From Chiloscyllium plagiosum (Eukaryota): 64,000 nucleotides of DNA. The translations under genes and the position numbers were made by a program. Under the pieces are notes generated by a model. That model was not told where the DNA came from. It did not search any database and saw nothing but the letters and a program-made list of their open reading frames with translations. Positions 22,868-62,309 of the stretch are shown here, piece by piece (position 1 is the first letter of the stretch; the number at the start of each line of letters is the position of its first letter). The stretch is taken from positions 4,082,301-4,146,300 of the forward strand of contig NC_057759.1 of the NCBI RefSeq assembly GCF_004010195.1, given 5' to 3'.

Positions 22868-23028
22868 TTAGCTTTGAAGGTGCTCTTCTGCGCTGTTTCC
22901 TGATGTCTGCAGAAGGTTCGCGTAAACATTTCCCTCTTTGTCTTGACCTCGTTTCTCAACTCCTCCTGTATCTGTGTGCTTCAAGCTTATGCATGTGATA
23001 CAGAATGGTTGCTGCTCCGCTGGTCAGC
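22868..23028 (-). pseudogene. Ig-receptor copy 2: terminal cytoplasmic exon
   Basis: Acceptor ttttcAG. Reads ...PFCITCISLKHTDTGGVEKRGQDKEGNVYANLLQTSGNSAEEHLQS*, aligning with the copy-1 last exon (SCIKYATL...DGNVYMNI). The ITIM Tyr is apparently changed to Cys; 161 nt is off-phase relative to copy 1. Confidence 0.7.
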
Positions 23029-23074
23029 CTGAAAACAGGTCAACACAGAAACACAGTAAATAGAAGCAGGGCCA

Positions 23075-23910
23075 ACATTGGTGGCATAGAGGACAGAGAA
23101 GAAGGTTATTTAAGAGTGCAATGGGAACTTGATCATGAAGTTTAATTTAGACGAATGTGTGGTGTTATGCAGGACTTATGCAGTTAATATTACAACTCTG
23201 GGAGTGTTGCCGAACAAAGAGACTTAGGGGTGCACATTCATATTTCCTTAAATGTGGCTTTGCAGCGAGACACGGTGGTGAAGAAGGCGTTTGGCATTCT
23301 TGCCTTCATTGTCAAACATTGACGACAGGAGTTGGGGCATCATCGTACAGCTGCACAGGATGTTGGTGAGGTCACTTTTAAATTACTGTGTAAGTTCTGG
23401 CTAGCCGACTGTGGAAAGGTTGTTGTTAAGCTAGAAAGTGTACAGAAAAGATTTACAAAGATGTTACCAAATCTGAAGGGTTGAAGTTATAAGGGGAAGC
23501 TGCATAATCTGGGATCTTTTCTCCCCTGGAGCATCGGAGGCTGAGGGGTGACCTTACAGAGGTTTATAAAATCACGAGGGGCCGAGATAAGGTAAATAGC
23601 TATAGGGTGTTCCCCAGGGTAGCGGAGCCCAAAGCTCGTGGGCACAGGTTTATGGTGAGAGAGGAAGGATCAAAAAGAGACAACGTTATCACACAGATGG
23701 CAATGTGTACATGAAATGAGCTGCGAAAGGAAGTTTTAGAGGCAGGTAAAATTACAACGTTTAAAAGATATTTGGAAAGGTATGTGGATAGGAAAGGTTT
23801 AAAGAGATATTGGCCAAATGCAGACGAATGGTTTGAGGTGAGTTTGGGAAACGTGGTCAGCATGGACGAGTTGGACCGAAGGGCATGTTTCCGCACTGTA
23901 TGACTATGCA
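23075..23910 (+). mobile_element. CR1 LINE 3' fragment
   Basis: gacttaggggtg, ggtgaggtcactttt, ctgaggggtgacctt motifs and CR1 tail. Confidence 0.8.
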
Positions 23911-24719
23911 AATAGATGAGAATAACAAACTTTACCTCTAAGTCAATCAGAGTGTACAGGAGGAGCTGTGAATATCTGCAGTCATTATACAGACTAATTT
24001 CTCTTAGCAAAGCACGGGACTGGAACAAGCCAAAAAACTGACCCTGCCATATATTATTTCTCTGTACTCTGAACAGGATGTCGCCATCTTTGCCAAGTGG
24101 ATGCAATTCCGAAATGTCCTTGAACCAATCGACTTGTTCAGCCAGGCAGTGAGGAGTTTGCAAAGGGGTAGGAGACACCTGCAAAGCAGACCGGATAAGG
24201 GGGACAGATTTCATCATGAGGATCATGAGAAGGCCATTCGGCCCCTCAAGCCTGCTCAGCCATTCAATAACATCGTGGCTGATGCCCCATTCGTCATGCT
24301 CACTTTCTTGCAGTTAGCCCGTAACCCTCAATTCCCCAACTGATGAAGAATCTTCTATCCCAGACTTAAACCTGCTCCCTGTCCCCATACACAGCTCTCT
24401 GTTGCAACGAGTTCAAAAGACACATAACCCTCTGAGAGAAGAACTTCCTCCTCACCTCAGTCTTCAGCTTTGAACCAGATGGTTGTTTGTTCCTGACAAC
24501 AGTCATCGTTGTAGTCTTAACTTCAGATCTGTTTTTGTTTAAAATCGAATTCCAAATCCACACCTGCCACCGCAAGATTCAAATTCACGTCTTCAGGGTA
24601 TACCCTGGGGAGAAATAAACAGAGGATTTTGCTTCCACATTATTTCAGAAACGGAAAGTGAATCTCATCAAAATTGAGATCAGAATAAATTGTCGCACAA
24701 CATTGAGCTAAACATTGAT

Positions 24720-25225
24720 GTCGCCAGAATCCATACAGTGTGGAAAGGGGCCATTTACCCATGTTGTCTGCACTACATCCTTTGAACAGGATGCCACCCA
24801 GATCCCGACCAGGACCGTGTTCTGATTCCCATAACTCTGCATTAACCTTGGCCAATCTCCCTAACTTGAACATCATAGAATCCTTCAGTGTAGAAGCAGC
24901 CCTTTCGGCCCGTCGAGTCCATACTGACCCTCTGAGTAGCATCAGACCAGATCCTCTGGCCCTACTCTATTCCTGTACACTACATTTCCCATGGTTAACC
25001 CTCCTCACCTGCATAACCCTCACAATATGGACAACTTAGCATGGCCAATCCACCTAAACTGCACATCTTTGGACTGCAGGAGGAAATTGGAGCAGCGGAG
25101 GAAACCCACGCAGAGAAGGGGAGAACATGCAAACTCCACCAAGTCACCCGAGGCTGGAATTTTACGTGAGTCCCTGGCGCTGTGAGGGAACAATGCTAAT
25201 CACTGAGCCACTGTGGTGACCAATG
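24720..25225 (-). mobile_element. HE1-like SINE plus a second partial copy
   Basis: Reverse HE1 body/head (ggccaatccacctaaactgcacatctttggac...ccctggcgctgtgagg). Confidence 0.75.
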
Positions 25226-26097
25226 CTTTTGTCTCTGGCCATGTCGGGGTTGGTTGGTTAGATCAGTGATTCTACAGTTAGCTTACAATGTATTGTTACA
25301 CTGACAGCATGTGGTTCAATTGCTGCTCTGTTTGAGATTGCTCTGAATGATCATTCCCTGTGCTTTAGATGTGGTGACCCTCAGGTTAAACACAAAGCAA
25401 TTGTTGCTTTTTCTCTCTCTTTCTCCCCCACACCTCTCTCTCCCTCTCTCTAACGAGACAATGATGACTTTACATTAACTGCCTGCTAAAAAACATAACT
25501 TTGCTGATTCCAAATTAACTGCTCTCTTTTTCACTGCAAAGTAACTTTTGTGTTTCCTTCTTGATGCACTGTCAGAGTGAGCTGTAAATAAAAGGCATTT
25601 TACCAATGGTACATATCTCAGTGAACTGGGAGAGGATGCACAGAGAGATTTACCAGCATATTGCTTTGGGGGGTTGGAGAGTTTCAGTTATGGAGAGAGA
25701 TCGAACTGACTGGGCTGGCTGTCCTTATAGCAGAGTAGTTTGAAAGAGAGGAATGTATAAAATGATGAGGAGCATAGATAGGGTAGACAGGAAGAAACCT
25801 TCCCCTCTTGATCGAAGGATCAATAAGTGGGAGAGGAACATAGATTGAAGGTAAAGGTTTCGAGGGGATGTGAGGAAAATCTTGTTCACCCAGAGAATGG
25901 TGTGAAATTTGGAACTCACTGCCTGTAAGAATAGGAGAGGCAGAAACCCTCAGCACATTGAAGGAGGGTTTAGATGTGCACTCATGACGACAAGACAATG
26001 GGCCAAGTGCTGTGGCAAAGGAATTAGAGAATAGTGAGATGTTTTTTTTCTGACCAGCACAGACTCGATAGGCCGACAGGCTTTATTCTGGTCTGTA

Positions 26098-26412
26098 GAT
26101 TAGATTAGATTACATTACAGTGTGGAAACAGGCCGTTCGGCCCAACAAGTCCACACCGACCCGCCGAAGCGCAACCCACCCATTCCCCTACATTTACCCC
26201 TTCACTAAACACTACGGGCAATTTAGCATGGCCAATTCACCTGACCTGCACATCTTTGGACTGTGGGAGGAAACCGGAGCACCCGGAGGAAACCCACGCA
26301 GACACGGGGAGAATGTGCAAACTCCACGCAGTCAGTCGCCTGAGTCGGGAATTGAACCTGGGTCTCAGGCGCTGTGAGGCAGCAGTGCTAACCACTGTGC
26401 CACCGTGCCACC
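26098..26412 (-). mobile_element. HE1 SINE, young full-length copy
   Basis: Near-identical to 29203-29510 and to the reverse complement of 47412-47718. (tagat)n tail; tRNA-like head. Confidence 0.92.
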
Positions 26413-27077
26413 GTAGACCTCTCTGACACTGTGACTAACTCACTTTGGATTGTGTATTCTATCTAAATACTGTCTAAACGTAAAGTGATTTTCATGTTCA
26501 GTGATGGGAGGTTTGTGTTCAGAAGAGAGATTGAGCAGTTACTCGGATACCCTCTGAAGTTCAGAACACTGAGAGGATACCTAAGTGATGAATTTCAGAT
26601 ACGAGAGGGGATGGTATTGACAGAGGAAATGGTATTGACATGAAGATGTTTCCTCATGTAGAATGAGACGGTCATCGTTTCAAGATAAGGTGATGGGAGA
26701 GAATGATAACAGAGATGTGGAGGAATGACTTCTTTCTAAGGGAAAGGAGTTGTTATTTTGTGGGAATTCACCACAACCTGTGCCCCGCCCCCCCCACCCA
26801 CTTGTGGGCCATGACAGGATACTGAATAAATTGAGGGGGGCGAGGGGGAAAACAGATATATTGTTAATCAATGAGTAGTTAAAGGGAGGGGAGTCAGAAA
26901 GTGGAATTGAAGCTGGGATGAGCTAAGCCACAGCTGTATAGAATGGGTGGTGGGGTGGGAGTTGTGCGGTTGCAGGCTCCTGAGGTCTCCTAGCCCGTTT
27001 GTTGTATTGGTCATCCAGCTGTCAGAACACATTTTACTGTTGAGAGCTCATAGCACATGCTCAGAAAGTCCTGAATC

Positions 27078-28719
27078 CAACCTCATAGTCCGACAACCCC
27101 GCACCGCCCGCTTCTACCTCCTGCCCAAAATCCGCAAACCTGACTGCCCCGGCCGACCCATTGTCTCCGCCTGCTCCTGCCCCACCGAACTCATCTCCAC
27201 ATACCTTGACACCGTCCTGTCCCCCTTAGTCCAAGAACTCCCCACCTACGTTCGGGACACCACCCATGCCATCCACCTGCTCCATGATTTTCGCTTCCCC
27301 GGTCCCCAACGCCTTATTTTCACCATGGACAACCAGTCCCTGTACACCTCCATCCCCCATCACGAAGGACTCAAAGCACTCCGCTTCTTTCTTTNNNNNN
27401 NNNNNNNNNNNNNNNNNNNNNNNNNNNNNNNNNNNNNNNNNNNNNNNNNNNNNNNNNNNNNNNNNNNNNNNNNNNNNNNNNNNNNNNNNNNNNNNNNNNN
27501 NNNNNNNNNNNNNNNNNNNNNNNNNNNNNNNNNNNNNNNNNNNNNNNNNNNNNNNNNNNNNNNNNNNNNNNNNNNNNNNNNNNNNNNNNNNNNNNNNNNN
27601 NNNNNNNNNNNNNNNNNNNNNNNNNNNNNNNNNNNNNNNNNNNNNNNNNNNNNNNNNNNNNNNNNNNNNNNNNNNNNNNNNNNNNNNNNNNNNNNNNNNN
27701 NNNNNNNNNNNNNNNNNNNNNNNNNNNNNNNNNNNNNNNNNNNNNNNNNNNNNNNNNNNNNNNNNNNNNNNNNNNNNNNNNNNNNNNNNNNNNNNNNNNN
27801 NNNNNNNNNNNNNNNNNNNNNNNNNNNNNNNNNNNNNNNNNNNNNNNNNNNNNNNNNNNNNNNNNNNNNNNNNNNNNNNNNNNNNNNNNNNNNNNNNNNN
27901 NNNNNNNNNNNNNNNNNNNNNNNNNNNNNNNNNNNNNNNNNNNNNNNNNNNNNNNNNNNNNNNNNNNNNNNNNNNNNNNNNNNNNNNNNNNNNNNNNNNN
28001 NNNNNNNNNNNNNNNNNNNNNNNNNNNNNNNNNNNNNNNNNNNNNNNNNNNNNNNNNNNNNNNNNNNNNNNNNNNNNNNNNNNNNNNNNNNNNNNNNNNN
28101 NNNNNNNNNNNNNNNNNNNNNNNNNNNNNNNNNNNNNNNNNNNNNNNNNNNNNNNNNNNNNNNNNNNNNNNNNNNNNNNNNNNNNNNNNNNNNNNNNNNN
28201 NNNNNNNNNNNNNNNNNNNNNNNNNNNNNNNNNNNNNNNNNNNNNNNNNNNNNNNNNNNNNNNNNNNNNNNNNNNNNNNNNNNNNNNNNNNNNNNNNNNN
28301 NNNNNNNNNNNNNNNNNNNNNNNNNNNNNNNNNNNNNNNNNNNNNNNNNNNNNNNNNNAGGTTAGACTGGGGTGGGGGCGGAGAGGTCGGGAAGATGATC
28401 TCAGGTTAGGAAGGCGGTGCTGAATTCGATGGAACCGGATTCAGCACCGCCTTCCGAACCTGCAATCTTCTTCCTGACCTCTCCGCCCCACCCCAGTCTG
28501 ATCTATCGCCCTCACCTTGACCTCTTTCCACCTATCACATTTCCGACGCCCCTCCCCCAAGTCCCTCCTCCCTACCTTTTATCTTAGCCTGCTGGACAAA
28601 CTTTCCTCATTCCTGAAGAAGGGCTTATGCCCGAAACGTCGATTCTCCTGTTCCCTGGCTGCTGCCGGACCTGCTGCGCTTTTCCAGCAACACATTTTCA
28701 GCTCTGATCTCTCACTTTC
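27078..28719 (+). mobile_element. Penelope-like element (RT fragment, gap, inverted 3' segment, hammerhead tail) with 9-bp TSD
   Basis: ARFYLLPKIRKPDCPGRPIVSACSCPTELIS...FTMDNQSLYTSIPH is PLE RT. Inverted repeat at 28362-28502. Hammerhead at 28613-28640. TSD tcctgaatc at 27069-27077 and 28720-28728. Confidence 0.88.
28613..28640 (+). ncRNA. Minimal type I hammerhead ribozyme motif (PLE-associated)
   Basis: CTGAAGA-a-GGGC-ttat-GCCC-GAAAC-GTC: conserved core, helix II and cleavage triplet. Confidence 0.75.
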
Positions 28720-28784
28720 TCCTGAATCTGAGGGGCCAAACTGTACAATGCATTACAGGCTATTAGTCACTTATTAACCAAGGC

Positions 28785-30000
28785 CATAAGATATACCAGG
28801 CACTCAGTCCATCAAGTCCGCGCTGCCATTTCATCATGTTTGATATGATTTAACCACATTCTTTTGCTTTCTACCTGAAATAATTGACCCCTTACTGATC
28901 AAGAACCTATCGTCTCTGACTTAATGACACTTAATGACAACCCTCTGTGATAATGAGTCCCACAGATTCCCCACTCTTTAGCTGAAGAAATTCCTCCTCA
29001 TCTCAGTTCAAAGAATCGTCCTTTCATTCTGAGACTGTGCCCTCGGTTCCTAGTCTCTCATCCTCGAGGAAACATCTTCTCCATGCGCACTATATCTCAG
29101 AATTCTCCAAGTTTCAATCAGATTCTCCCTCATTCTTCTGAAATCCATCGACTCCAGATACAGAGTCATCTACCTCTTCTCATTTTTTTTTTGTTTTTTT
29201 TTAGATTAGATTACAATGTGGAAACAGGCCCTTCGTACCAACAAGTCCACACCGACCCGCCGAAGCGAAACCCACCCATACCCCTACATTTACCCCTTAC
29301 CTAACACTACGGGCAATTTAGTATGGCCAATTCACCTGACCCTGCACATCTTTGGATGGTGGGAGGAAACCGGAGCACCCGGAGGAAACCCACGCAGACA
29401 CGGGAGAACATGCAAACTCCACACAGTCAGTCGCCTGAGGCGGGAATTGAACCCGGGTCTCTGGCGCTGTGAGGCAGCAGTGCTAACCACTGTGCCACCG
29501 TGCCGCCCACCGTGCTGCCGTATCATGTGACAAGAGCTTCATTCCTGGGATCTTTCTTGCAAACCCCCTCTGAACTCCCTCCACGTTCAGCTCAGCCTTC
29601 CTTAGACATGCTGCCTAAAACTCACAATGTTCGAAATTGTGCTCTGATCAGAGCCTTATGCAGCCTCAGCAGTACATCTCTGCTCTTGTATTGTAACCAT
29701 CTCGAAATGAATGCGAAAATTACATTTGCCTTCATAACTGGCAACTGAACCTCCCTGTTAACCTGAAGAGACACTTGAACTCGGACACTCAAGTCCCTTT
29801 CTGCTTTAGATTTCTGAAACCATTCCCCATTTAGAAAACATGCTCCATCTCTCTTCTCCCCACTGAAATACATTATCTCCCATTTTCCCACATTATATGC
29901 TATCTGCCATTTTCTCTCCTAGCCTGCCCAATTCCTTCTGCAGCCTCCCCTCTTCCTCAACACGTTTTGGCCTTCTAACTATTTTTGTGTCATTTACGAA
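28785..30000 (-). mobile_element. CR1 LINE fragment interrupted by an HE1 SINE
   Basis: Minus ORF ERDLSVRVQVSL...LLRLHKALIRAQF; CR1 tail at about 28790. Confidence 0.75.
29203..29510 (-). mobile_element. HE1 SINE, young full-length copy
   Basis: Reverse complement of gggcggcacggtggcacagtggttagcactgctgcctcacagcgcc; (tagat)n and poly-T tail. Confidence 0.92.
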
Positions 30001-30490
30001 ACGCTCAGAACAATGAAATGGCAATGTCCCCCATGTGAATGATGCTCGACCAAGAGCGAATGGCTTTTGTCACGGCGGCAAAGGCTCGAAGGGACCACTC
30101 TCAGATATTAAGCTGTTGAATTGGGGTAATAAAAAGGTTGTTATTTCAGTGTCAAATGTTTAAGCGTTCCCTCAAAACAAGATGAACGATATAGCAATTA
30201 GCCATCAATGTAAGATTACTTCTTCTAACACATATTTCCATGCTGTCAATTTCGTTGACATAATTGGATTATGACGAAGATTTAGATACATTTAAAACAT
30301 TATTTGTTATTAATAAATTTGAATGATGTAAAAGGTTTTGAAAAACTTGGGCAGATCTTCGCTCCATGCTATAAGCAAGAGAAACACCGGCGATGTTTAA
30401 AACTGGCTGGTGGGTTGAAATAAACCAGAGAAAATCTCCACTTCAACTGTGCCAGAAATGTTTTAAAAATATATATACTGTATCCTTTAC

Positions 30491-30555
30491 CAGCGTTTCT
30501 TGGCTTTGAGATTGTCCCACCGAGTACACCAAACTGCCATCCATTTTTGAGTCAT
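30491..30555 (-). pseudogene. Ig-receptor copy 2: ITIM-containing cytoplasmic exon (frameshifted)
   Basis: tttacAG|AT GAC TCA AAA ATG GAT GGC AGT TTG GTG TAC TCG GTG G-G ACA ATC TCA AAG CCA AGA AAC GCT G|GTAAAG = DDSKMDGSLVYSV(V)TISKPRNA. Paralogous to copy-1 LIYSVVTIKK. 65 nt, implying a 1-nt deletion. Confidence 0.75.
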
Positions 30556-30619
30556 CTGTAAATCGAGAAACAATAAGCAAAGGAGAATATTGTGGAAAAG
30601 AATGAGCTACAGGATATTA

Positions 30620-34200: not shown

Positions 34201-35094
34201 TATCATGTCCCGCTCCCCCATCAACGTTCGCTTTTGTGAAGGAAACAACCCAAACTTCTCTCCATCGCTTACAGAAAGAGAGTTGTTTTTTGTTGATGTC
34301 CCCAATCAGACGAATACCAGCATGAACACTGACCAATATATGACGGTGTTCAATTGTCAGCTTACAGATTCGCACTCGCCATTCAGTCAACTTGGCCCAG
34401 TCTCTGCGTATTGAAATTTCCTGCAGGTCTATTATCACTCACACCCTCAGCTCGAATTCCCATCGCCTCACTTGGAGTGAAATATTTCCAGATTAATACC
34501 AAACCAAGTTCCAATCATACTTGCAACAACAATTTGCTGCTGTCGCCAAATGAAAATCCTGGCCATGAGATCACTGAGCGAAGGTCCGAAGGGATTTATC
34601 CTGGAATTATCTGGAATGTGGCTCAGAATTTCTATCTTCATAGAATCATAGAATTTTACTGTACAGGAGGAGGCCGTTCGTGTCTGCACCAGCATCTGAC
34701 AGAGCTAACAGCTAGTCTCACTATCGACCCCTATCTCCACAGCCCTCTAGCATCAGCCCCTTCAAACTTATATCCAGCTTTCTTTTGAAACCGCCTGTGG
34801 CACCCGTCTCCACCACTCTCCCAGGCAGCACATTCCAAACCCAGCAATCCAACAGTAAGCAAGTTTCTCCTCATCTCATTATCTCAATTGAAAATATTGA
34901 AATTCTGACCCGTTAGTCACCTGTTAGTAAGGCAACAGTGGGAAACAGAAAATCTTTCTTTTCCCTGTCAGACTTGTTCATGACTTTCAACACCTCAACA
35001 AGTTCACCACTTCAACTTCTCTGTTCCATGGAGAATACGCTCCATCTCTCTAACCTTTCCCTATATCTCAAACCCCTCAGTTCTGTTGTCATTC

Positions 35095-35822: not shown

Positions 35823-35824
<2 letters not shown>

Positions 35825-35886
<62 letters not shown>
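35825..35886 (+). repeat. (CT)n microsatellite
   Basis: Direct observation. Confidence 0.95.
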
Positions 35887-35890
<4 letters not shown>

Positions 35891-36215: not shown

Positions 36216-36506
36216 CTGGTTCTGTGATGTCTTTGGAATGACTGGTCACATTAAATATCGTTAGACTAGGACACCTGTCGATTGCGACACGTTGGTATCG
36301 GTGTTGGTGCTGGAAATGGAAGGATTGAACGCCAAGCACTCTCATGTCTGAGCTAGACTTGTAATTCCCGCTGGCGTTCTGTCGAAAGTATCATTGAAAG
36401 TAGGGCCCAGTACTTCGGCTCAATACACACTCGAGAACGAGACAACTCCCAATCAGAACCTTCATTTTATTGGCTCAGGGAGTGATGAAAACCCCAGCAA
36501 AAGGAA
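36216..36506 (-). pseudogene. Ig-receptor copy 2: fifth (membrane-proximal) Ig exon
   Basis: ttgcAG|...|GTAATT, 291 nt, phase 1-1. VPFAGVFITP*ANKMKVLIGSCLVLECVLSRSTGPYFQ*YF...SFHFQHQHRYQRVAI...TIFNVTSHSKDITEP. Two stops; second Cys lost. Shares TIFNVTS with the copy-1 exon at 56921-57212. Confidence 0.8.
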
Positions 36507-38173: not shown

Positions 38174-38448
38174 CGATCACCGAAACGGCGAGGAATTTGC
38201 TGTTCAGGAGAAGTTGTTCCTCCTGATTAGAAACAGTGCAGTGATAATTACCCTCTTGGCTTTTGCTAATGCGTGTACGGTTCTGCTGTGTTTGGAGAAT
38301 TCCCAGTATATCTCCTCGCCATCCTTGTAGAAAATATGTTGAATTGGGGTCGAACCGCTAGTCACGGATCAGTTGAATGCAGTGCTATCTCACTCCACTA
38401 CCTCGTTTCCAGGCTGGGCACTCAGCTCTGGGACTGACACAGGGATGC
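38174..38448 (-). pseudogene. Ig-receptor copy 2: fourth Ig exon
   Basis: ttgcAG|GC ATC CCT GTG TCA gives IPVSVPELSAQPGNEVVE*DSTAFN*SVTSGSTPIQHIFYKDG...(frameshift)EGNYHCTVSN...AVSVI. Donor is TTGAGT. Paralogue of copy-1 IPVSKPEL exon. Confidence 0.82.
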
Positions 38449-38804: not shown

Positions 38805-38806
<2 letters not shown>

Positions 38807-38848: not shown

Positions 38849-38853
<5 letters not shown>

Positions 38854-39368: not shown

Positions 39369-39646
39369 GTTTGATTAAAATGGGAATTATGTTGCTCTTT
39401 TTCCTCAGATTATTGTCGTGAGTCGTGACTTCACATTTGTAAGTCCCTGAATGGTGCAGTGTTGCTTCCTCTATTGTAAAACTGCTCTTTTCTGAAGGAA
39501 AATTGAGAGATTCCCGGATTTTGTAAAATGTGTAAAACAGGGGGTGATCATCCTGAAAGGTTTCAAACAAGCAGGTGAGCTTAAAGCCTTCAGCAATGAA
39601 TACTTCCATGATGGGGTCAGCTTGCAAATTTGCTCAGAGCAGAGAT
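39369..39646 (-). pseudogene. Ig-receptor copy 2: third Ig exon (FCRL D3-like)
   Basis: gatgtAG|AT CTC TGC TCT GAG (DLCSE), then a frameshift into LQADP...FKLTCLF...LFYTFYK...HSGTYKCEV...KKSNIIPILIK, donor C|GTAAAC. 278 nt. Confidence 0.82.
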
Positions 39647-40081: not shown

Positions 40082-40348
40082 CTTTTACAACAACGCTCAT
40101 ATCGTCTGAGATCCATTTCCTGAAACCCAGTTTCTGCTCACATCGATAAGTTGCTCCATCTGAAAATCTCATCCTTGCTATCATGTATTCGAGTTCATGT
40201 TCTCCTTCAATTAAGGAATTGTTTCGATACCAAACGTAAGCGTAATCTCTTTCAGATGCCCAGAAACGCTTGGAGTACTTCAGAGCAGATGTTTCACCAA
40301 GCAGCAGGGTCCTTGAATGGACTTGCGCAGTCCATGCCACACTCGAAG
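40082..40348 (-). pseudogene. Ig-receptor copy 2: second Ig exon
   Basis: tctttaAG|...|GTAGGT, 267 nt, open: LLLGETSALKYS...YVWYRNN...SDGATYRCEQ...ISDDMSVVVK. The first canonical Cys appears as Tyr. Confidence 0.82.
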
Positions 40349-42713: not shown

Positions 42714-42956
42714 CAATGGTCACCACTTCCAAAGGTTCACTTGGTGAAAAAAGGTTCCCAATTTGACACAGGTACAAGCCTTCAATTTTACTGTCAACCC
42801 TTCCACTGAAGTCATAAAATTTAACCTTGTAAAAGTTGTTCTTATATCAGGTAGCCTTTATAAATCTGTTGTTGCATTGACAGTTCAGAGTAAACCACTT
42901 CTCTTCTTAGATGACACTATCCCTAGGATTAGTTATGACAGCCTCTGCGAATTGGC
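42714..42956 (-). pseudogene. Ig-receptor copy 2: first Ig exon
   Basis: ttctgcAG|GC...G|GTACGT, 243 nt, phase 1-1: QFAEAVITNPRDSVI*EEKWFTLNCQCNNRFIKAT*YKNN...IEGLYLCQIGNLFSPSEPLEVVTI. Stops at 42907-42909 and 42847-42849; the latter replaces the conserved Trp. Confidence 0.8.
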
Positions 42957-46882: not shown

Positions 46883-47002
46883 TTACTTGCGCGGAATATT
46901 CATGTAAACATTTCCATCCCCTCCGTCTTCTTCCTGCGAGGGCTCGCTGAGGTTCAGTGTGGCGTATTTGATACAAGAATCGTCAGAGTCAGTCTTTGAA
47001 TC
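46883..47002 (-). pseudogene. Ig-receptor copy 1: terminal cytoplasmic exon
   Basis: attaaAG|GAT...TAA, 120 nt, phase 0: DSKTDSDDSCIKYATLNLSEPSQEEDGGDGNVYMNIPRK*. ITIM IKYATL plus a YxN motif. Confidence 0.82.
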
Positions 47003-49302: not shown

Positions 49303-49337
49303 CTTCTTCCTATCGGAGGAAAAAACAACACTCTTGC
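49303..49337 (-). pseudogene. Ig-receptor copy 1: cytoplasmic exon 4
   Basis: ttttattttcAG|GC AAG AGT GTT GTT TTT TCC TCC GAT AGG AAG AAG|GTATGT (GKSVVFSSDRKK). Phase 1-0 fits both neighbours. Confidence 0.75.
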
Positions 49338-50805: not shown

Positions 50806-50865
50806 CAGGCTCTGTTCTCTTTTTGATGGTGACCACTGAATAAATCAAATCCGCAGTGGTGTTTC
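50806..50865 (-). pseudogene. Ig-receptor copy 1: cytoplasmic exon 3 with ITIM
   Basis: tctttgtAG|GA...G|GTAAAG, 60 nt: GNTTADLIYSVVTIKKRTEP (ITIM LIYSVV). Confidence 0.82.
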
Positions 50866-51322: not shown

Positions 51323-52475
51323 AAGGCGAAAGTGAGGATTGCAGAAGCTGGAGTCCAGAGTCAAGATTAGAGTGGTGCTGGAAAAGCACAGCATTCGAGG
51401 AGCAGGAAAATCGACGTTCCGGGCAAAAGCCCTTCATCAGGAATGTGGCAGGGACCCTCCGGAGTGGAGAGATAAATGGAGCAGGGTGAAGCTGGGGAGA
51501 AGGTATCTAAGAGTATAATAGATGTATAGAGGTCGGGATGAAGGTGATAAGTCGGAGAGGAGGGTGCAGCGGATAGGTGGGAAGGAAGACTGGCAGGTAG
51601 GGTAGGTCATGAGAATGGTGCTGAGCTGTCAGGTTGGAACTGGGGGAAGGTGGGGGGAGGGGAAATGAGGAAACTGGTGAAGTCCACATTAATGCCCTGG
51701 GGTTGAAGTGCTCCAAGATGGAAGACGCGGCGTTCTTACTCGAGGTGTCAGGTGGTGAGGGTGTGGCGGTGGAGGAAAACCAGGACCTGCATGTCCTCGA
51801 CAGAGTAGGAAAGGGAGTTGAAATGTTCAGCCACAGGCGGAGGTGGGGTTGGTTGGTGTGGGTGTCTCGGAGATGTTTCCTAAAGCGCTCTGCAAGAAGG
51901 CATTCAGTCTCCCCGATATAAGGAAGGCCACATCGGGGCAATGGGTACAATAAATGACATTGGTAGATGTGCAGGTGAAACTTTGATGGATGTGGAAGGC
52001 TACTTTGGGGCCTTGGATGGACGTGAGAAGGGAGGTGTGGGCGTAGGTTTTGCAATTCCTGCGGTGGCAGGGGAAGGTGCCAGGACGGGAGGGTAGGTTG
52101 TTGGTGAGCGTGGAACTGACGAAGTATTCACGGAGGGAACGCTCTTTGTGGAAAGTGGAAAGGGGTGGGAAGGGAAATATATCTCTGGTGTTGGGGTCCA
52201 TTTGGAGGTGCCAGAAATGTCGGTGGATGGTATGGTTTATGCAGAGCTTGGTAGGGTGGATGGTGAGGACCGGGGGGTTCTGTCCTTGTTGTGGTTGGAC
52301 AAGTGGGCTTTGAAGGCGGAGGTGCAAGACGTGGATGAGATGCATTGGAGGGCGTCTTCAACCACGTGGGAAGGGAATTACGATATTTAAAGATGGAGGC
52401 CATCTGGTGTGTTCTGTGGTGGAACTTGGTCCTCCTGGGAGCAGATACGGTGCAGGCGGAGGAATTGGGAATATA
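51323..52475 (-). mobile_element. Penelope-like element (RT C-terminus, GIY-YIG, tail) nested in a CR1 fragment
   Basis: PGTFPCHRRNCKT...FTCTSTNVIYC...YIGET...LAERFRKH. Degenerate hammerhead at 51411-51441. CR1 sequence continues on both sides. Confidence 0.88.
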
Positions 52476-52484
52476 AGATACCTA

Positions 52485-53502: not shown

Positions 53503-53576
53503 CAACATTGTGTGCTGCTCCAACTACTGCAAACTACAGATGGCTGGCTGCTGCCCCTTCACCAGAAGGTTGGGAT
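53503..53576 (-). pseudogene. Ig-receptor copy 1: cytoplasmic exon 2 (in-frame stop)
   Basis: actAG|A TCC CAA...GTT G|GTGAGT, 74 nt, phase 2-1: SQPSGEGAAASHL*FAVVGAAHNV. TAG at 53534-53536. Confidence 0.65.
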
Positions 53577-54129: not shown

Positions 54130-54160
54130 CTCCTGGGCTGCGACACAGTTGACGAATTGC
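54130..54160 (-). pseudogene. Ig-receptor copy 1: cytoplasmic exon 1
   Basis: ctctctttccctgcAG|GC AAT TCG TCA ACT GTG TCG CAG CCC AGG AG|GTAAGT. Strong splice sites; 31 nt, phase 1-2. Confidence 0.75.
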
Positions 54161-54379
54161 CTGCAGGGAAAGAGAGAATATTCTCAGCATCATTTACAGT
54201 AGCTCTGTACTGTCACAGACAGGAGCTGCCAAAGTGTTATCTCAGTCATAAACAGGGAACATAAGCATCAATAGATGATACATGGCTTGGAGAGGGTGGA
54301 CGCTAGGAAATTGTTTCCGTTATTTTATAATGGTCAAACCTGTCTTAATGCATTAAACAGCTTAACATTAAGCAGCCGC

Positions 54380-54790
54380 ATAGGTTTAGGGTGATGGGTA
54401 GGGCTAGGGTGAGGGCTAGGATTCTGATAACGGTTAAGGTTAGTGTTAGGGTATTTCGTTGAGGTTCGTGGTTAGTGTTATGTTAAGAGTTAGGTTTAAG
54501 GTTAGAGTTATGATGAGGTTTATGTTTTAGATTAAGAGTAGGATTAGAGGCAGGTTAGGATTAGGGTTAGAGCTAGAGCCAGAGTTAGGTTTAGGATTAG
54601 CGTTAGCTGTTTCGTTAGGGCCAAAGTTAGAGTTAGGGTAAAGGTTATGATTGAGTTACATTTAAGTTTAAAGTCGGAGTTTGCGTTAAGGATGGTTATG
54701 TTTAGTGTTAGGGTAAGGATTAAGGTTGAGCTAGGTTTAAGTTTAGGGTTAAGCTTCGGGCTAGGGTTCAATTTACGTGTAGGGTTAGGT
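54380..54790 (+). repeat. Degenerate (TTAGGG)n-like interstitial repeat
   Basis: About 400 bp of 6-mer variants (ttaggg, ttagag, ctaggg, ttaagg). Confidence 0.85.
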
Positions 54791-55224
54791 CAGACTGCCC
54801 AGTGGATACTGAATAAATTTAAGGAAGTGATAGACAATGTTTTAACGAGTCATAGTTTAAAGAGAGTGATCTGTAAAGTGAAGTTGATCCAGATGCAATG
54901 CATTAAATAACAGAGCAAGATCCTGAGGTGCTGAATGTGCTCATCCTGTTCCCGACACTCTTGGTCTTACATCTCTCCTCTTCTCTGAGGTGCTTTGACA
55001 TAGAGTGGTGGGCTGTGGTGGGTCACAGTTACCCGATCCAGCAGGCTAGCTTTAGGAGTACTCTCCCTCCCGACTGTCCGGAACACGGCCTACTCCAGTT
55101 CCCGACCTTAACATCCTTCCCTCGGCCTCCCCGTTCAGCTGAAAGGTTACATTGTAATTGGAGGGTACCACTGTCATGGCGTGAGGATGTGGAACAAGTC
55201 CCATTCCCATGGGATGTTACAGAC

Positions 55225-55322
55225 CTGTGTCCCTCAGTGAATGTAGTTCCACAACACAACCAGGCCAGCCAACAGCAGAACTGGGAGGAGCGACGCCACG
55301 ATTTCCTTGGAATAATCCTGAG
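55225..55322 (-). pseudogene. Ig-receptor copy 1: transmembrane exon (in-frame stop after the TM)
   Basis: ggattccAG|CT CAG GAT TAT...: QDYSKEIVASLLPVLLLAGLVVLWNYIH*GTQ|GTCTGT. Uncharged TM. TGA at 55234-55236, plausibly from CGA. Confidence 0.75.
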
Positions 55323-55624
55323 CTGGAATCCAACAAGAATATTCAGCTCACGTTAACAAATTCACCAGGAAGTTTTATCACATCACCCCTGCGTGAGGTA
55401 CACAGTTAATATCAGACTGACTAACACCTACAGAAATGTAACTCCCTGCCAGCATAGAGGTATCGAGAGTTTCACAGTGTGGCAGAGTTTGCCCCACTGA
55501 GTTACCAACACAAATCCCACTTTCCAACACTAACCCTCCGCAGCCTTCAATGTTATGACATTTCAAATGCCGATCCAAGTACTTTGTAAAAATTGGGAGT
55601 TGCCCTGCTAGGCAGTATGTTCCA

Positions 55625-55828
55625 CCAAGGTAAAAACAATGACTGCAGATGCTGGAAACCAGATTCTGGATCAGTGGTGCTGGAAGGGCACAGCAATTCA
55701 GGCAGCATCCGAGGACAGGCCAAATCGACGTTTCGGGCAAAAGCCCTTCATCAGGCTTTATTCCTGATGTTGTCCTCGGATGCTGCCTGAATTGCTGTGC
55801 TCTTCCAGCACCACTGATCCAGAAACGA
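55625..55828. mobile_element. Palindromic hammerhead-containing mini-element with 11-bp TSD
   Basis: Inverted arms 55664-55717 and 55771-55824. Minus-strand CTGATGA-AGGGC-tttt-GCCC-GAAACGTC at about 55726-55755. TSD agtatgttcca at 55614-55624 and 55829-55839. Confidence 0.8.
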
Positions 55829-55989
55829 AGTATGTTCCAACCCCCACCACACTTTGGGTGAACCTATCCTCAAATTTCACTTTAAACCGCCCGTCCTTCA
55901 CTTTAAAATGACGTTTCCATCCCTGACATTGTTATTGACCCTTTGACTATTGGGAACATCTGTTTCCTTTTTCCCCAGTCCCTTCCCCG

Positions 55990-56585
55990 TCATGTTGTGG
56001 CTGTACAGGACATTGGTTACGCCAATGTTGGAATACTGCGTGCAACCCTGGTCTCCTTCCTATCGGAAAGATGTTGTGAAACTTGAAAGGGTTCAGAAAA
56101 GATTTAAAAGAATGTTGCCAGCGTTGGAGGATTTGAGCTATAGGGAGAGGCTGAACAGGCTGGAGCAGTTTTCCTTGGAGCGTCAGACGTTGAGAGGTGC
56201 CCTTATAGAGGTTTAAAAAATCACGAGGGGCATGGATAGGATAAATAGGCAAAGTCTTTTCCCTGGGGTCGGGGAGTCCAGAACTAGAGGGCAAAGGGTT
56301 AGGGTTAGAGGGGAAAGATATAAAAGAGACCTAAGGGGAAACTTGTTCACACAGAGGGTGGTACATGTGTGGAATGAGCTGCCAGAGGATGTGGTGGAGG
56401 CTAGTACGATTGCAACATTTAAAAGGCATTTGGATAGATATAGGAATAGGAAGGATTTGGAGGGATATGGGCCGGGTGATGGCAGGTGGGACTAGATTGG
56501 GTTGGGATATCTGGTCGGCATGGACGGGTTGGACCGAAGGGTCTGTTTCCATGCTGTACATCTCTATGACTCTATGACTCTATGT
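55990..56585 (+). mobile_element. CR1 LINE 3' fragment, young
   Basis: LYRTLVTPMLEYCVQPWSPSYRKD...RGNLFTQRVVHVWNELP; (ctatgact)n tail. Confidence 0.9.
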
Positions 56586-56920
56586 CTATTGAGTTCCCCT
56601 CTCAGCATTTCCTGTTCCATAGAAAAGATTCCAAGATTATCCAGCCTCCCTCTCTTCCTCGCTAAAATTCAGGGAACATCCTGGTAAATCTGCTCTGCAC
56701 TCTGCCCTCTCCATGAGGTGTGCAGTTCTAGTTTTTTATTGCATTCGAATTCCACCCGGAACACCACCCAACATCATTCTGGATCAATAACCTATGATAA
56801 TGCCGCCCAGCTATCACCTCCCCAACTGAGATGGTTAACAGTTTCTGATTAGCACAGACTGGATGGACGAATGGCCTTTCTCTGTGGTCTGTCTATGTTC
56901 ATTCCGAGTGTCAATGTTAC

Positions 56921-57212
56921 TTCGCAGCGTGAATTCTATGTAGTCGCTGGTAACATTAAAAATGGTGTGGTTGGCTCCTTTGTTGATTGCTGCACAGTAA
57001 TACCTCCCGATATCGTCTCTCTGGAATGAATGAATAACCAGCTCACCACCATCAGCAGTCACATAGTAGCTTGCACTGTCGTTTTTTAGCGGAGTGTTGT
57101 CATGGTACCAAACGAACTGGGGCTCTTTGCCTTCCCTCACCCGGCACTGGAGAACAAGGCGGTCCCCAGATTGTATCTCAGTCCCGTTAATGAAGAAAAT
57201 CTGTGACAGGAA
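56921..57212 (-). pseudogene. Ig-receptor copy 1: membrane-proximal Ig exon (frameshifted near its 5' end)
   Basis: ctcctcAG|TT CCT GTC ACA (VPVT), then a shift into INGTEIQSGDRLVLQCRV...FVWYHDN...DIGRYYCAAIN...TIFNVTSDYIEFTLR, donor A|GTAACA. 292 nt. Confidence 0.85.
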
Positions 57213-57339
57213 CTGAGGAGAAAACACAGCGTGATCAAAATGCATAGAGTTTACCCATTGAATTCAGGCCATCAGCGGGAACCAGTTTGACACAATGGTT
57301 TTAAAATAAAGTTGGGAATTCGATAGATTAAAGAACTAA

Positions 57340-57845
57340 TGTAACGGATGGATAGTATTAAACTGGAGAAAATACCGAAGAAATGTAAAAGGATGTTGAA
57401 AGGATTCAACACTCTGAGTTTTAGGGAGAGACTGGATAAGCAAACCCTTTTGCTTTCAAACATAGGAGACTGAGCTGGGATCACAAAGAAGTATATAAGA
57501 TCTTGGTTGGGGTGAATGAACTCAATCTGTTTCCCTGGGTTGTGGAGTCAAGGACTAGAGGGCATCGGTTTAAGGTTCGACAGGAAAGATTAAAAGGGAA
57601 ACCTGAAGGACAATTCTTTTACACATCTGGTGTAACAGATATGGAATGAACTGCCAGGGGAAGTGGTTGAAGAGGGTACATCAACAATATTTAAAAGTCG
57701 TTTGGACAAGTACTTGGATAGAAGTGGTTTAGAAGGATATTAGACAAAGTGCAGGGACATTGGCTTCGCGTGGATGGACATTTTGGTCTGCATGGACCAA
57801 TTTGAGCAGAAGGGCCTGGATTCTTGCTATAGGACTCTATGATTC
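57340..57845 (+). mobile_element. CR1 LINE 3' fragment
   Basis: ggactagagggcatcggtttaagg...tggaatgaactgccagggg. Confidence 0.75.
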
Positions 57846-57874
57846 TGATGTGCAAGGCTGTGCCACTTTTGTTT

Positions 57875-58052
57875 CGGAAAGTGTAATGCTGGAAAAGTAT
57901 AGTTGACGTTTCGAGCATAAGCTCTTCATCACATTCCTGATAAAGAGATTATGCCCGAAACATCGGCTCTCCTGCTGCACGGATGCTGCCTAACCAGTTG
58001 TGCTTTTCCATCTCCATATCTTTTGACTCTGATCTCCAGCATCTGCAGTCCT
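57875..58052. mobile_element. Degenerate head-to-head pair of PLE termini (two decayed hammerheads)
   Basis: gacgtttcgagcataagctcttcatc / ctgataaagagattatgcccgaaacatc around 57905-57965. Confidence 0.65.
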
Positions 58053-58187
58053 CTCTCTGTCTCTGTGTTGCTTTAGTCAAAAGTGTGGTGCTCAAGAATG
58101 AAGCGCCAGCTTTGAGTTGGTCTCAGCAGCAGTTTTCCCGAGCTGATGGTTCAGTTACTCTTTGGGAGAGAGTCCTTGTGAATTCAT

Positions 58188-58472
58188 CTACCACTGTGAT
58201 CTCTATGTCTTCACTGTGCTGAGGGCATGTCACCTCATTTCTCACTGAACAATGGTAAAGCCCTTCATCAGTTCTACTGATAGGCCCAATGTTGTAATCA
58301 AGCTCAGTGCTGTTGGAAAGCTCCCTGTACAGTTCCACACTTGAGCTGTTGTAGAATTGATAATAAATCGGCAGAGAACCATTGGAGACTGAACAGATTA
58401 AGGATCCTGTGTCTCCTTCGATTAGATCTTTTCCGGGTTGAATTACCAGTTCCGGTTTTGACACTGGAATTC
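58188..58472 (-). pseudogene. Ig-receptor copy 1: Ig exon (IPVS-type, FCRL D4/D5-like)
   Basis: gttacAG|GA ATT CCA GTG, 285 nt, open: IPVSKPELVIQPG...LICSVSNGSLPIYYQFY...DEGLYHCSVRN...HSEDIEITVV. The expected donor reads ATGAAT. Confidence 0.85.
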
Positions 58473-58754
58473 CTGTAACCATAGACAAATGGTAGATCAT
58501 TGTATTTAGCAGAGTTAATTGCAAACTCAACTATGAACATCACCACAGACATGCAAAAACGCATATCCTGTTGTTTTTGTTCATTCGTTGGATGTGGGTG
58601 CCACTGGATACTCCAGTACTTACTGCTCATCCCTAATTACACAAAGGACAAGGTTGTTGGGCTGCAATCAACCTTTGGAATTGAATTCAGATTCTCCCAT
58701 ATGCTATGGTTGGATTTGAGCCCAGAATATGAGCCGATTCTCTGAATTTTTACG

Positions 58755-60460
58755 ACATAGAGCAGTACAGCACTGGGACATGCCCTTCAGCCCACCATGT
58801 CTGCGCATGGCTGTGATGCCATTCTATACGTATTCCATTTGACTACATGTGGTCTAGATTCCTCTACTCACTACATATAGTCTGTCAATATGCCTCGTAA
58901 ACATTGCTATCGTATTTGTTTCTACCAACTGCTCTGGCAGTGTGTGCCAGACACCTAACCACTCTCTGTGTAGAATCATAGAGATGTAGCGCACCTTCAG
59001 TCCAACTCGTCCGTGCTGACAAGATATCATAAATTAATCTAGTCCCATTTGGCAGCACTTGACCCTTATATCTCTAAATCCTTCCACTTCATACACCCAA
59101 TCAGATGTCTTTTAAATGTTGTAATCTTACTGGCCTCCCCACTCCCTCTGCCAGCTCACTCCACAGACGCACCACCCTTTGTGTGAAACTGTTATCCCTT
59201 AGGTCCTTCTAATTTATTCCCCTCGCACCCTAAACCTACGCCCTCAAGTTTTCGACGCCCTCACCCAAGGGAAAAGACTTTGCCTAATTTTTCCTATCCA
59301 TGCTCCTCAAGACTTTATAAACCTCTATAAGGTCATCTCTCGGCCTCCAATATTCCAGGGAAAACAGCACCAGCCTATTTATCCACTCCCTATAGCTCAA
59401 ATCCACCAACCCTAGCAATATCTTCATTTTTTTTCCAAAATTCTTTCAAGTTTCACGACATCCTTCCTTTTGGAGGGAAACCAGATTTGCACACAATATT
59501 CCAGAAGTGGCCTAACCTATGTGCTGTACAGGCGGAACATGACCTCCCAACTCCTATACTCAGTGCTCCAACCAATAAAGGAAAACATATTAATTAGATT
59601 CTTCATCATCCAATCTATCGGCATCCAAACTACACTGTTAAGAAACTGTGAATCTAGACTTCAAGGTCTCTTTATTTAGCTGCACTCCCCAGGACCTTAC
59701 CAATAATTGCATAAGTCCTGTCATGATTTGCCTTTCCAAAATGCAGCACCTCACACTTAGCTAAATTACACTCCATCTGCCTCTCCTCAGCCCATTGGCC
59801 CCTTTGATCAAGATCCTGTTGTCCTCTGAGGTAACCTTTACTCGCATATCACCTTTAAACTTTCCTCCTTTCACCTTAAAGCTGTGCTTCCCACCTTAGT
59901 ATTTGATATTTCCATCCGGGGAGAGAGACTCTGACTATCCACTCTCTCCATGCCTCTCATAATTTTGTATATACAATACAAGTCTCCCTACAGCGTCCAA
60001 TGCTCTACTGAAAACAACTCAAGTTTGTACAACCTGTCCTCATAGTTCACCTACTCCAACCCAGGCAACATCCAGGTAAACCTGTTTTGCACCATCTCAG
60101 AAGACTCCACAACTTTGTTATAGTATATCCTTGCCAACATTTACAATCACTGCCCCGAATGATGACGACAAGCATGCCACATGACTTCTTTACCACGTTA
60201 TTCACTTGGGGTGCCACATTCAGTGAACTATGAGCTTGCACTGCAAGATCCCTCTGCATATCAATGCTCTCAAGAGTCCTGCCATCTACTGCATATTTTT
60301 CTCTTGCATTTCACCTACCAAAAAATGGAACAGCTCATATTAGTCTGGATTAAAATCCATCTACGATTTCTGTGCCCAATGTTCGGGTTGATATTCTTTG
60401 ACAACCTTGCTCACTATCCACAACTCCACCAAATTTCATGTCATCAGCAAAATTATTAAT
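58755..60460 (-). mobile_element. Two nested CR1 LINE 3' fragments (inner one about 58975-59835)
   Basis: Minus-strand QRDLAVQAHSSLNVAPQV; two CR1 tails, at about 58755 and 58975. Confidence 0.8.
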
Positions 60461-60992
60461 TCGACATGGTAAGCACAGAAAAAAACTGTTATTGATAGTC
60501 GAGAGACATCCAGGGGTCACAGTCTAAAGGAGATGGAGTAGGACTGAGATGGGAGGAATGCCTTCACCTAGGGAGTGGGGATCCTGTGGAATTCTCTGCC
60601 ACAGAGTATGGTCGGAACCAGAACCTTAAATGTTGTTCAAGAATGAGGTGAATATAATACTTAGGGCCGAAGGGAAGAGTGCAAGTGGCCAGGGGACTGA
60701 GTTGGAAGATCAGCCACAATCCTAGTGCATGGGCATATCAAGCTGCAAGGATTGAATGGCCTATTGCCATTCACATGTTCCAATAATTTTCTAGCAGTGA
60801 ATCCCACAGGCTCCTCAGTCTCTGCATGAAGTCATTTTTCCCCATCTCAGTCCTAAATGGCCCACCCAACACCCTGTGCTCTTTGCCTCTAACTCTCCAA
60901 TATATGTCTTTCAGATGTGGAGAGTGATGATAAATTGTCTCTATTCTGAGTCTTCAGCAGTTTAGAAACGGACGAAAATAAATTATACTCAT

Positions 60993-61262
60993 GCCTGATG
61001 GACGAATAGAGCTGATTACTGCATTTCCACACTTTCCCGTCTGTAACTTCACAATGGTAAGTACCCGAGTCTGTCAGACGAGCTGACACAGAAAGGTAAT
61101 CCCTGTGGTAGCATGGAGACTGGAGAGGGACCCCATTTCTGTAAAAGCTGTACCACAAGGAAGCTTGCGAGGGATACTCTTCAATCCAGCACACCAGGTT
61201 AACCCATTGGCCATCAAACAGCTGTCCCTCAGGATGCACAGTCAGCATCGGAATGGCGAACA
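60993..61262 (-). pseudogene. Ig-receptor copy 1: Ig exon (FCRL D3-like)
   Basis: ttccaaAG|TG TTC GCC, 270 nt, open: FAIPMLTVHPEGQLFDGQWVNLVC...LWYSFYRNG...DSGTYHCEV...SNQLYSSIR. The expected donor reads C|ATGAGT. Confidence 0.85.
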
Positions 61263-61484
61263 CTTTGGAAAGCAGAAGGACATGTTTCTGTTTCAGCCTG
61301 TAGAGTGTCTGTGCTTGGGGAAGCTCAGTGATCAGAACGAGAGCAAGAAAATCCCGAGACGGGGTTAGTCCAGGAGATTCCAACAATCCTTCAAGGATAA
61401 TCAAGGCTGTTAACGCCATGTCAGCTCGAGGTTAGATTTGGTGAAGATTGCGATCGAATTTGGAATGAATAAATACAACCTCAG

Positions 61485-62000
61485 CGAGAGTATTGCATTC
61501 GGTTCCGGAATCCACATTCTAGGAGGGACAGGATAGCACTGGGAGAAGGTGTACAGGCAAATTTACCAGGATGTTGCCCTTGGAGCTGGAGAGTTTCAGT
61601 GATGGCGAGAGACTGGAGAAAGTGTTTTTGTTTCCTTAGAGCAGAGGGGATTGAGACGAGGGTGGGGGTCATGATTGAGATTTATAACATGATGAGGCGT
61701 GTAGATAGGATAAACAGGAAGAAACGTAATGCCCTTCGTGGAGAGATCAATGACCGAGGGAGGGAGTATAGATTGAAAGTAAGGGGCAGGAGTGTTTAGA
61801 GGAAATGTGAGAGAAAGCATTTTCATTCAGAGGCTCTGTACCTTACTGCCTGTTAGGTTGGAAGACGCAGAAACCTTCATCACATTTGAAGAGTGTTTAG
61901 ATATGACTTTGCAATGCCAAGGTTATGGGGCCACGTGCTGGGGAAATGGGGATTAGAGAATAGTGAGGTGGCTGTATCTGACTTGATGGGTTGAAGGGTT
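61485..62000 (+). mobile_element. CR1 LINE 3' fragment
   Basis: gagtattgcattcggttccggaatccacattctagg...tttaccaggatgttgcc. Confidence 0.75.
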
Positions 62001-62042
62001 TTAATATGTTCTTCAGATTCTGCAATAATGATAGATAGTTAT

Positions 62043-62309
62043 GTTTAACAGGAATGTTAATGCTGTTGCTCCTCTTCATCAGTCCATAAACCGTATCGAT
62101 TGCTTCACAGGCGTAATTCCCAGAAACGTTTGCAGCCGCTGAGTTAATGGTGTACACGCTTCCATGATCAGGCGCAGTCTGCAGTGCGGCGCTGTCTCTG
62201 TCAAGCTGGACGGAGAGCCATTCCGCCAGGACAGTGCACGTCAACGTGAACTGGAGCCCCTCGAATACTTCAGCTGGCTCCACCCTCAGCACGGGCTCGG
62301 CAAATCGTT
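62043..62309 (-). pseudogene. Ig-receptor copy 1: Ig exon (FCRL D3-like), most 5' exon visible
   Basis: attccAG|AA CGA TTT GCC GAG CCC, 267 nt: ERFAEPVLRVEP...FTLTCTV...SGNYACEA...KRSNSINIPVK. The C-strand YxFY motif is missing; the expected donor reads C|ATAACT. Confidence 0.85.

Follow-up and report, generated by a model that had tools for sequence, protein, structure and literature searches.

The stretch of DNA analysed here, a 64,000-nucleotide window of the Chiloscyllium plagiosum genome (G000:C50:4082301-4146300), carries two copies of immunoglobulin (Ig)-domain receptor genes with immunoreceptor tyrosine-based inhibitory motifs (ITIMs). We conclude, with a probability of about 0.8, that both copies are broken and unprocessed, that they were copied together in one block of ~46 kb, and that their intact relatives elsewhere in the genome are probably inhibitory members of the FCR/FCRL family. 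An earlier, sequence-only reading of this DNA had described a pair of same-strand receptor genes from a cartilaginous fish. Its assignment to a cartilaginous fish was right, and so were the two exon chains, both on the minus strand, which we call gene A (upstream chain, 62309-46883) and gene B (downstream chain, 42956-22868); the numbers it gave are the low ends of exons (58188, 38174, 56921 and 36216; range 22868-62309). As receptor genes, however, the pair did not stand up, both members being pseudogenes, and our prediction is that neither window copy yields a protein. Direct observations, described below, are the lesions, the absence of leader and transmembrane exons, the sister block and the shared stop codons, whereas the history and the mechanism are what we infer.

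Lesions were scored against two intact references, the sister A gene P0002 and the intact B gene P0023, which match exon by exon at C50 4.89-4.93 Mb and 2.50-2.53 Mb and are named by RefSeq as PECAM-like isoform X3 (subfamily A) and PECAM-like isoform X2 (subfamily B), respectively. Relative to P0002, gene A shows two frameshifts and one stop codon, and four of its splice donors are dead. Its chain opens with two D3-type Ig exons corresponding to the fifth and sixth Ig exons of the intact gene: the first (62043..62309) has a 12-nt in-frame deletion and an AT instead of a GT donor, and the second (60993..61265) has lost the G of its acceptor, with a cryptic in-frame AG 3 nt further on, and likewise ends in AT. 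The IPVS Ig exon (seventh; 58188..58472) has an open frame and an AT donor, the membrane-proximal, D6-like Ig exon (eighth; 56921..57212) carries an 11-nt frameshift deletion near its start, and in the uncharged transmembrane exon (55225..55322) a 1-nt deletion leads to a stop just after the helix. Within the cytoplasmic tail, the first exon (54130..54160), the ITIM exon reading LIYSVV (50806..50865; present in two copies in the sister gene) and the terminal exon with IKYATL and NVYMNI (46883..47002) are intact. The exon of the first ITIM (53503..53576), which reads LEYAVV in the intact gene, bears a stop codon and a Tyr-to-Phe change, and the 27-nt tail exon (49311..49337) has GG in place of its GT donor. 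The leader and the first four Ig exons are missing altogether, and in the DNA comparison homology to the sister stops at 65053. Over 60 kb upstream of gene A, neither tblastn with 49 family proteins nor DNA comparison with the upstream part of the sister gene found a family exon, so that a 5' half lying farther upstream was rejected; the genome search likewise found no A-type N-terminal exon near gene A. Compared with their P0002-type homologues, the remaining A exons are 91-96% identical at the DNA level.

At the donor of the IPVS exon, GT is present in 11 other A-type loci (L002-L007 and L009-L013), as opposed to AT in the window; AT recurs in one further locus, L020, which is also decayed. 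Since the paralogues have GT, we rejected the idea that the AT donors represent a genuine non-canonical splice class. The three consecutive A donors at 62041-62042, 60991-60992 and 58186-58187 all changed from G to A. Two of them lie in a CpG context and can thus be attributed to decay of methylated cytosine, which does not explain the third.

Gene B too is dead, and its death came earlier. Its Ig exons contain six stop codons, frameshifts affect two Ig and three tail exons, one donor reads TT, and two Ig domains have lost a Cys. The first Ig exon (42714..42956) has two stops in common with the sister copy and a 9-nt deletion; the second (40082..40348) is open, with its first Cys changed to Tyr. 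The single D3-type exon (39369..39646) carries a 1-nt frameshift also present in two other dead copies, the IPVS exon (38174..38448) has two shared stops, a 10-nt deletion and the TT donor, and the membrane-proximal exon (36216..36506) has two stops, a 12-nt deletion and no second Cys. Three tail exons each lost one nucleotide: one at approximately 34380..34470, the ITIM exon (30491..30555), where the deletion falls within the motif, and the terminal exon (22868..23028), whose ITIM also changed from Tyr to Cys; a further tail exon of 36 nt lies at 25546..25581. Two motifs previously quoted for B are accordingly products of decay, as 'LVYSV-TI' conceals the 1-nt deletion, the frame actually reading LVYSVGQSQ, and 'CITCISL' corresponds to IIYATL in the intact gene, with the ITIM tyrosine lost. 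Compared with P0023, both leader exons, the transmembrane exon and one tail exon are missing; a B transmembrane exon elsewhere in the window was rejected, as hydropathy scan and alignment revealed none. Identity of the B exons to intact P0023-type homologues is 77-85% at the DNA level.

Genes A and B are related to each other beyond chance, the paired IPVS exons being 38% identical (E 1.8e-9) and the TIFNVTS exons 32% (E 2.5e-6). A one-to-one correspondence of exons applies to the four pairs originally listed and not to the chains as a whole: D3-type Ig exons number two in A and one in B, only A has a transmembrane exon, and only B has N-terminal D1/D2-like exons, of which there are two. Beyond the four pairs, A comprises the transmembrane exon (55225-55322) and three more tail exons, and B the stop-bearing first Ig exon (42714-42956) and two more tail exons. 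At the DNA level, no A exon matched a B exon. Given this absence and the 32-38% protein identity, a recent tandem duplication of A into B was rejected; judged by their sequences, A and B are old paralogues and not a fresh tandem copy. The proposed 1-1 phase of the Ig exons was borne out by position, with the reservation that four of the nine (three AT in A, one TT in B) lack a GT donor.

What was copied more recently is the pair. A segmental duplicate containing both genes extends from 18650 to the window end at 64000, its homology ending at 65053, ~1 kb past the window, and corresponds to a sister block at G000:C50:4851195-4910540. Window positions 18650-63281 are collinear with C50:4851195-4909127 in 20 blocks covering 38,837 window bases at a mean identity of 88.5%, and over the ~46 kb of the duplicate the A half (88.3%) and the B half (88.6%) are equally diverged. 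In the sister block (C50 4.85-4.91 Mb), A is intact (P0002) and B is dead. Window B and sister B share 4 of 8 stop positions and have a ratio of nonsynonymous to synonymous rates (dN/dS) of 0.86 (433 codons), from which it follows that the death of B preceded the duplication of the block. The stops of the B IPVS exon also occur in two unplaced contigs. The 4.9 Mb block is the only close DNA sister of the window block; the block at 1.49 Mb matches its A half at about 80%, and that at 3.85 Mb gave no long match. In the A neighbours at these two places (1.49 and 3.85 Mb), the exons that could be bounded are open and have normal splice sites. Regarding the sister A gene itself, we observed a normal split leader at L044/L056 (G000:C50:4934260-4935781, minus strand), which is absent from the RefSeq models P0002 and P0005, whose N-termini derive from other upstream sequence.

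The same arrangement recurs along the contig. Querying G000 with the A IPVS exon returned 27 matches, mostly at C50 1.0-7.1 Mb and with intact and dead copies intermixed, in keeping with the birth-and-death cluster suggested by the sequence-only reading. A search with one B exon gave 15 matches, seven of which are B-type and on C50. Each of the seven has an A-type IPVS exon 18-76 kb upstream on its own strand, although in the case at 2.97 Mb another fragment stands between the A-type exon and the B copy. Among the ten B copies examined, only that at 2.5 Mb (P0023) is intact, the other nine being broken. These data suggest several rounds of duplication of an ancient tandem unit of A and B, in which B was for the most part carried along dead. 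The longer protein relatives of the A IPVS exon (n = 22) are without exception shark models, named FCRL2/3/5/6, PECAM-like, FcgammaRI-like or similar, and the seven protein relatives of gene B are similarly shark models with mixed names. Across the intact copies, RefSeq naming is inconsistent (FCRL2/3/5/6, PECAM-like, FcgammaRI-like, HSPG2-like). The earlier expectation of poor annotation thus applies to the names but not to the models, since RefSeq already models the intact copies.

To which family the intact genes belong was assessed by matches to solved proteins, profile search, domain scores and a domain tree. The six open Ig stretches of the window all match Pfam Ig families. For P0002 the best PDB match is FCRL5 (1.5e-71), followed by FcgammaRI, and residues 122-380 are collinear with FcgammaRI D1-D3; P0023 is collinear with FCRL4 (26-371 with 26-372). 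Thus, FCRL5, FcgammaRI and FCRL4 lead among the solved relatives of P0002 and P0023, and FCRL5 leads for two window exons, the A IPVS exon and the B D3-type exon, for the latter together with FcgammaRI. A profile built from 14 shark proteins and searched over 1.84 billion representatives ranked other sharks and rays first. Among the 30 of 150 hits that were named, by our own choice, seven are FCRL-named shark or ray models (horn shark, catshark, smooth-hound, white shark, basking shark, stingray and electric ray), and 17 of the other 23 are FCRL-named proteins of mammals, reptiles, amphibians and ray-finned fish. In pairwise scores, with a PECAM class that includes same-genome domains, 28 of 34 intact shark and ray domains were nearest to tetrapod FCRL domain classes, five to PECAM, one to a LITR-like stand-in and none to CD22, and the nine window domains divided into five nearest FCRL classes and four nearest PECAM.

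The tree comprised 106 domains over 91 columns, built after 25 near-duplicate or atypical domains were dropped and leaving out CEACAM, LILR and verified LITR sequences. It placed the membrane-proximal domains of A and B in a starred clade (99/97) with FCRL-like domains of turtle, alligator, frog, caecilian and paddlefish. The label D6 for this clade is our reading of PMC2413239, whose consulted sections name a sixth domain subtype. According to the collinear alignments and domain scores, the ectodomains of the intact relatives present D1-D5(-D6) subtypes in N-to-C order. Four A and five B Ig domains of the intact genes are single exons of phase 1-1, AG/GT-bounded and open, an organisation common to many Ig superfamily genes. 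The leader is split over two exons (31 + 30 bp in sister A, 40 + 30 bp in intact B), the tails of all eight intact genes have two to four ITIM-consensus motifs and a final YxN, none of the eight has an activating counterpart (ITAM), and the membrane-spanning core is free of charged residues in ten A-type transmembrane exons. On sequence evidence, the intact genes are probably members of the wider FCR/FCRL family and not orthologues of any mammalian FCRL.

Comparison with named systems refines this placement. The RefSeq carpet-shark models P0002, P0023 and their relatives named FCRL2/3/4/5/6 are exon-for-exon homologues of the window copies, but intact, with leader, eight or five Ig domains, transmembrane segment and tail. 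Non-mammalian FCRL proteins (turtle P0097, alligator P0170, caecilian P0077, frog P0096, paddlefish P0105; the Xenopus XFL family, PMC2413239) resemble the shark genes in having one or two PVS-type domains after domains of D1/D2/D3 type, the membrane-proximal domain of the starred clade, a split leader, a multi-exon tail with tyrosine motifs and a birth-and-death cluster; as differences, the shark IPVS domain could be placed in neither D4 nor D5, and none of the ten A-type transmembrane exons has the activating NxxR. With mammalian FCRL3/4/5 and FcgammaRI, the shark genes share best PDB matches, collinear D1-D3(-D4) domains and ITIM tails, whereas the second leader exon differs (21 bp in mammals, 30 bp in the shark) and the sampled mammalian proteins have no D6-like domain. 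PECAM1 has PVS-type Ig domains and an ITIM tail, and PECAM is the best class for the IPVS domain, but PECAM1 lacks both the FcgammaRI-like D1-D2 pair and a D6-like domain. Like teleost LITRs, the shark genes form an expanded cluster of Ig-domain receptors with D1/D2-like domains; LITRs have no D3-D5 according to the consulted sections of PMC2413239, whereas D3-D5 dominate in the shark genes. The teleost LITR-like stand-in P0134, the one LITR-type sequence in the comparison, was the best match for 1 of the 34 intact domains, and the LITR label proposed earlier gained no specific support. The proposed kinship to FCR/FCRL over CD22 was upheld by domain scores, CD22 being the best class for 0 of 43 domains; CEACAM, compared in the PDB search alone, was likewise set aside (CEACAM1 2e-07 versus FCRL5 8.5e-39).

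Elsewhere in the genome we observed a PECAM1-like gene of six Ig exons at G000:C24:48062074-48096450 (plus strand; L052, L045, L053, L055), with PVS-type starts in three exons and a first domain that matches PECAM1 best (1.1e-07). Because this gene is the better PECAM1 candidate, PECAM1 orthology of the C50 genes was rejected, and because it too carries the IPVS/VPV motifs, these are not diagnostic of the FCR/FCRL family as had been supposed. Single Ig exons weakly resembling IPVS lie on two other contigs (L046, C22:53.598 Mb; L047, C35:32.523 Mb).

Several observations weigh against the interpretation given above, in part because they would suit two working inhibitory receptors, as seen by the sequence-only reading, in which the defects would be rare alleles or mistakes of the assembly. 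An open frame is kept by several A exons, whose identity to the intact protein is 85-91%, and dN/dS between window A and its intact sister is 0.38 (398 codons); A therefore kept the marks of selection, its death being probably late. Small N gaps upstream of A (e.g. 69211-70182) could conceal an exon. The 11-nt frameshift is the sole lesion checked in independent data: contigs from all three contig runs (three samples, two studies) span the deletion gaplessly, and one of these runs could be the assembly's own sample. No listed contig spans the donor of the A IPVS exon, and one raw RNA run, of which ~6/100 was sampled, gave 0 reads, too little to test expression. Set against this are more than 20 separate defects over the two genes, with whole exons missing, stops in B that recur in a copy 750 kb away and in two unplaced copies, and the presence of the tested frameshift in three samples. 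The view of two working genes is thus already largely refuted, and we give it almost no credence. The amino-acid conservation of A could alternatively reflect a non-coding role, in which the A remnant serves as gene-conversion donor or transcript source that diversifies or tunes the intact copies. Its exons are indeed better conserved at amino-acid than at silent sites, and the silent-site divergence (dS) of the IPVS exon is 0.11 to the 1.49 Mb copy, as compared to 0.15 overall to the block sister, a difference that conversion could cause. However, late death accounts for the same numbers, and a single exon with 63 silent sites is weak ground, making such a role highly improbable.

The family assignment has its own difficulties. 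The membrane-proximal exon alone matches titin and MDGA1 ahead of FCRL5, the shark D2-like domains join tetrapod D2 at 90/97 without a star, and the D1, D3-type and IPVS domains have no resolved place in the tree. In five of six intact proteins the IPVS domain scores best to PECAM. The second leader exon measures 30 bp in both intact genes and not the 21 bp of mammalian FCR/FCRL genes (stated in the consulted part of PMC7940838), for which reason we do not file the intact genes as mammalian-type FCRL1-6 orthologues; the 21-bp rule is followed by only a fraction of Xenopus XFL genes, as the consulted part of PMC2413239 reports. The only FcR-gamma/zeta-type exon found lies on C12 and not on C50. 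This exon (L080, G000:C12:49769721-49769807, plus strand) is an intact FcR-gamma/CD3-zeta-type transmembrane exon (PF11628, E 1.2e-12), while the consulted part of PMC4016189 states that sharks have no FcR-gamma. Some of these features would fit dead copies of a shark and ray expansion from a PECAM1-related or pre-FCRL ancestor, sister to FCR/FCRL. The nearness of IPVS to PECAM domains, with which it groups in the tree through shark PECAM d2 (94/87), the nesting of PECAM domains among D5 domains, the 30-bp leader exon and the PECAM-like RefSeq names of many members all speak for such an origin. We nevertheless regard it as rather unlikely, given the separate PECAM1-like gene on C24, the D1-D2-D3 order as in FcgammaRI and FCRL4, and the absence of any PECAM member from the D6-like clade.

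Under the interpretation we favour, decayed FCR/FCRL-type copies, subfamilies A and B would have split early, as both are present in other carpet sharks, and stood in tandem. The B lineage of the window probably died first and rode as passenger when the A-B block was duplicated, and window A may then have lost its 5' half, or never received it, before decaying. The products of the intact genes should be type I membrane proteins whose 5-8 Ig domains of C2 type are followed by an uncharged transmembrane segment, two to four ITIMs and a final YxN. In established ITIM receptors, the motifs once phosphorylated serve as docking sites for SHP-1/SHP-2 or SHIP, and YxN as one for Grb2. Ligand binding would accordingly be expected to cause phosphorylation of the ITIMs of the intact receptors and recruitment of SHP-1/SHP-2/SHIP, which should damp the activation of leukocytes, probably B cells.

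The introns of the window copies are filled with decayed reverse-transcriptase fragments, which we take to be of LINE/Penelope type, and with what are presumably short interspersed elements (SINEs), seen in the list of open reading frames at 26911-27394, 51500-52480 and many other sites. N gaps occupy 4131-4630, 14465-14522 and 27395-28358. A zinc-finger array of the C2H2 type (Pfam zf-C2H2) lies at 1081-2300 on the plus strand. Beyond its seventh finger the frame is broken by two stops and two frameshifts, and it is probably a ZNF pseudogene. The presence of ZNF genes beside a receptor cluster is reminiscent of the neighbourhood of the human leukocyte receptor complex. About 8.8 kb past the window end (L021, ~72750-72900 in window numbering, minus strand), an isolated hydrophobic stretch has the look of an exon but does not resemble the transmembrane exons of A or B.

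The consulted parts of a 2014 survey (PMC4016189) and of a 2026 review (PMC13337447) state that sharks and other cartilaginous fish have no FcRL genes, and both raise the question of how these animals manage antibody-dependent functions. The part consulted of a 2024 single-cell paper (PMC11372145) reports fcgr1a-like, fcrl3 and fcrl5, by annotation name, as high in bamboo shark B cells; its four supplements gave no match for fcrl3/5/6 or fcgr1. The consulted text of PMC6795676 refers to a paper of 1988 with the title 'Fc receptor for shark IgM', that of PMC4810170 does not mention sharks, and the elephant shark genome paper (PMC3964593) gave no match for family terms in its main text or one supplement. 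In a search mostly outside subscription journals, we found no account of a shark FCRL cluster. The presence of such genes is already implied by the RefSeq names and the 2024 single-cell paper; it is a correction awaiting write-up, not a hidden discovery.

In themselves, the two window copies are unremarkable remains of an immune gene cluster with fast turnover, and the cluster matters more than they do; near-identical dead copies of this kind can confound read mapping and gene counts in the C50 cluster. A further-reaching proposal, which we hold to be doubtful as a whole, is that sharks and rays have a true FCR/FCRL cluster, grown by repeated duplication of A-B pairs in which B is usually dead, and that one intact member, such as P0002 or P0023, is responsible for the Fc-binding activity towards shark Ig, an activity not known to have been linked to any gene. 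The intact genes would be named candidates for binding of IgM, IgW or IgNAR. Intact FcgammaRI/FCRL4-like genes in sharks and rays would shift the origin of the family to the jawed-vertebrate ancestor, and the FCR/FCRL family would, if this is true, be as old as jawed vertebrates.

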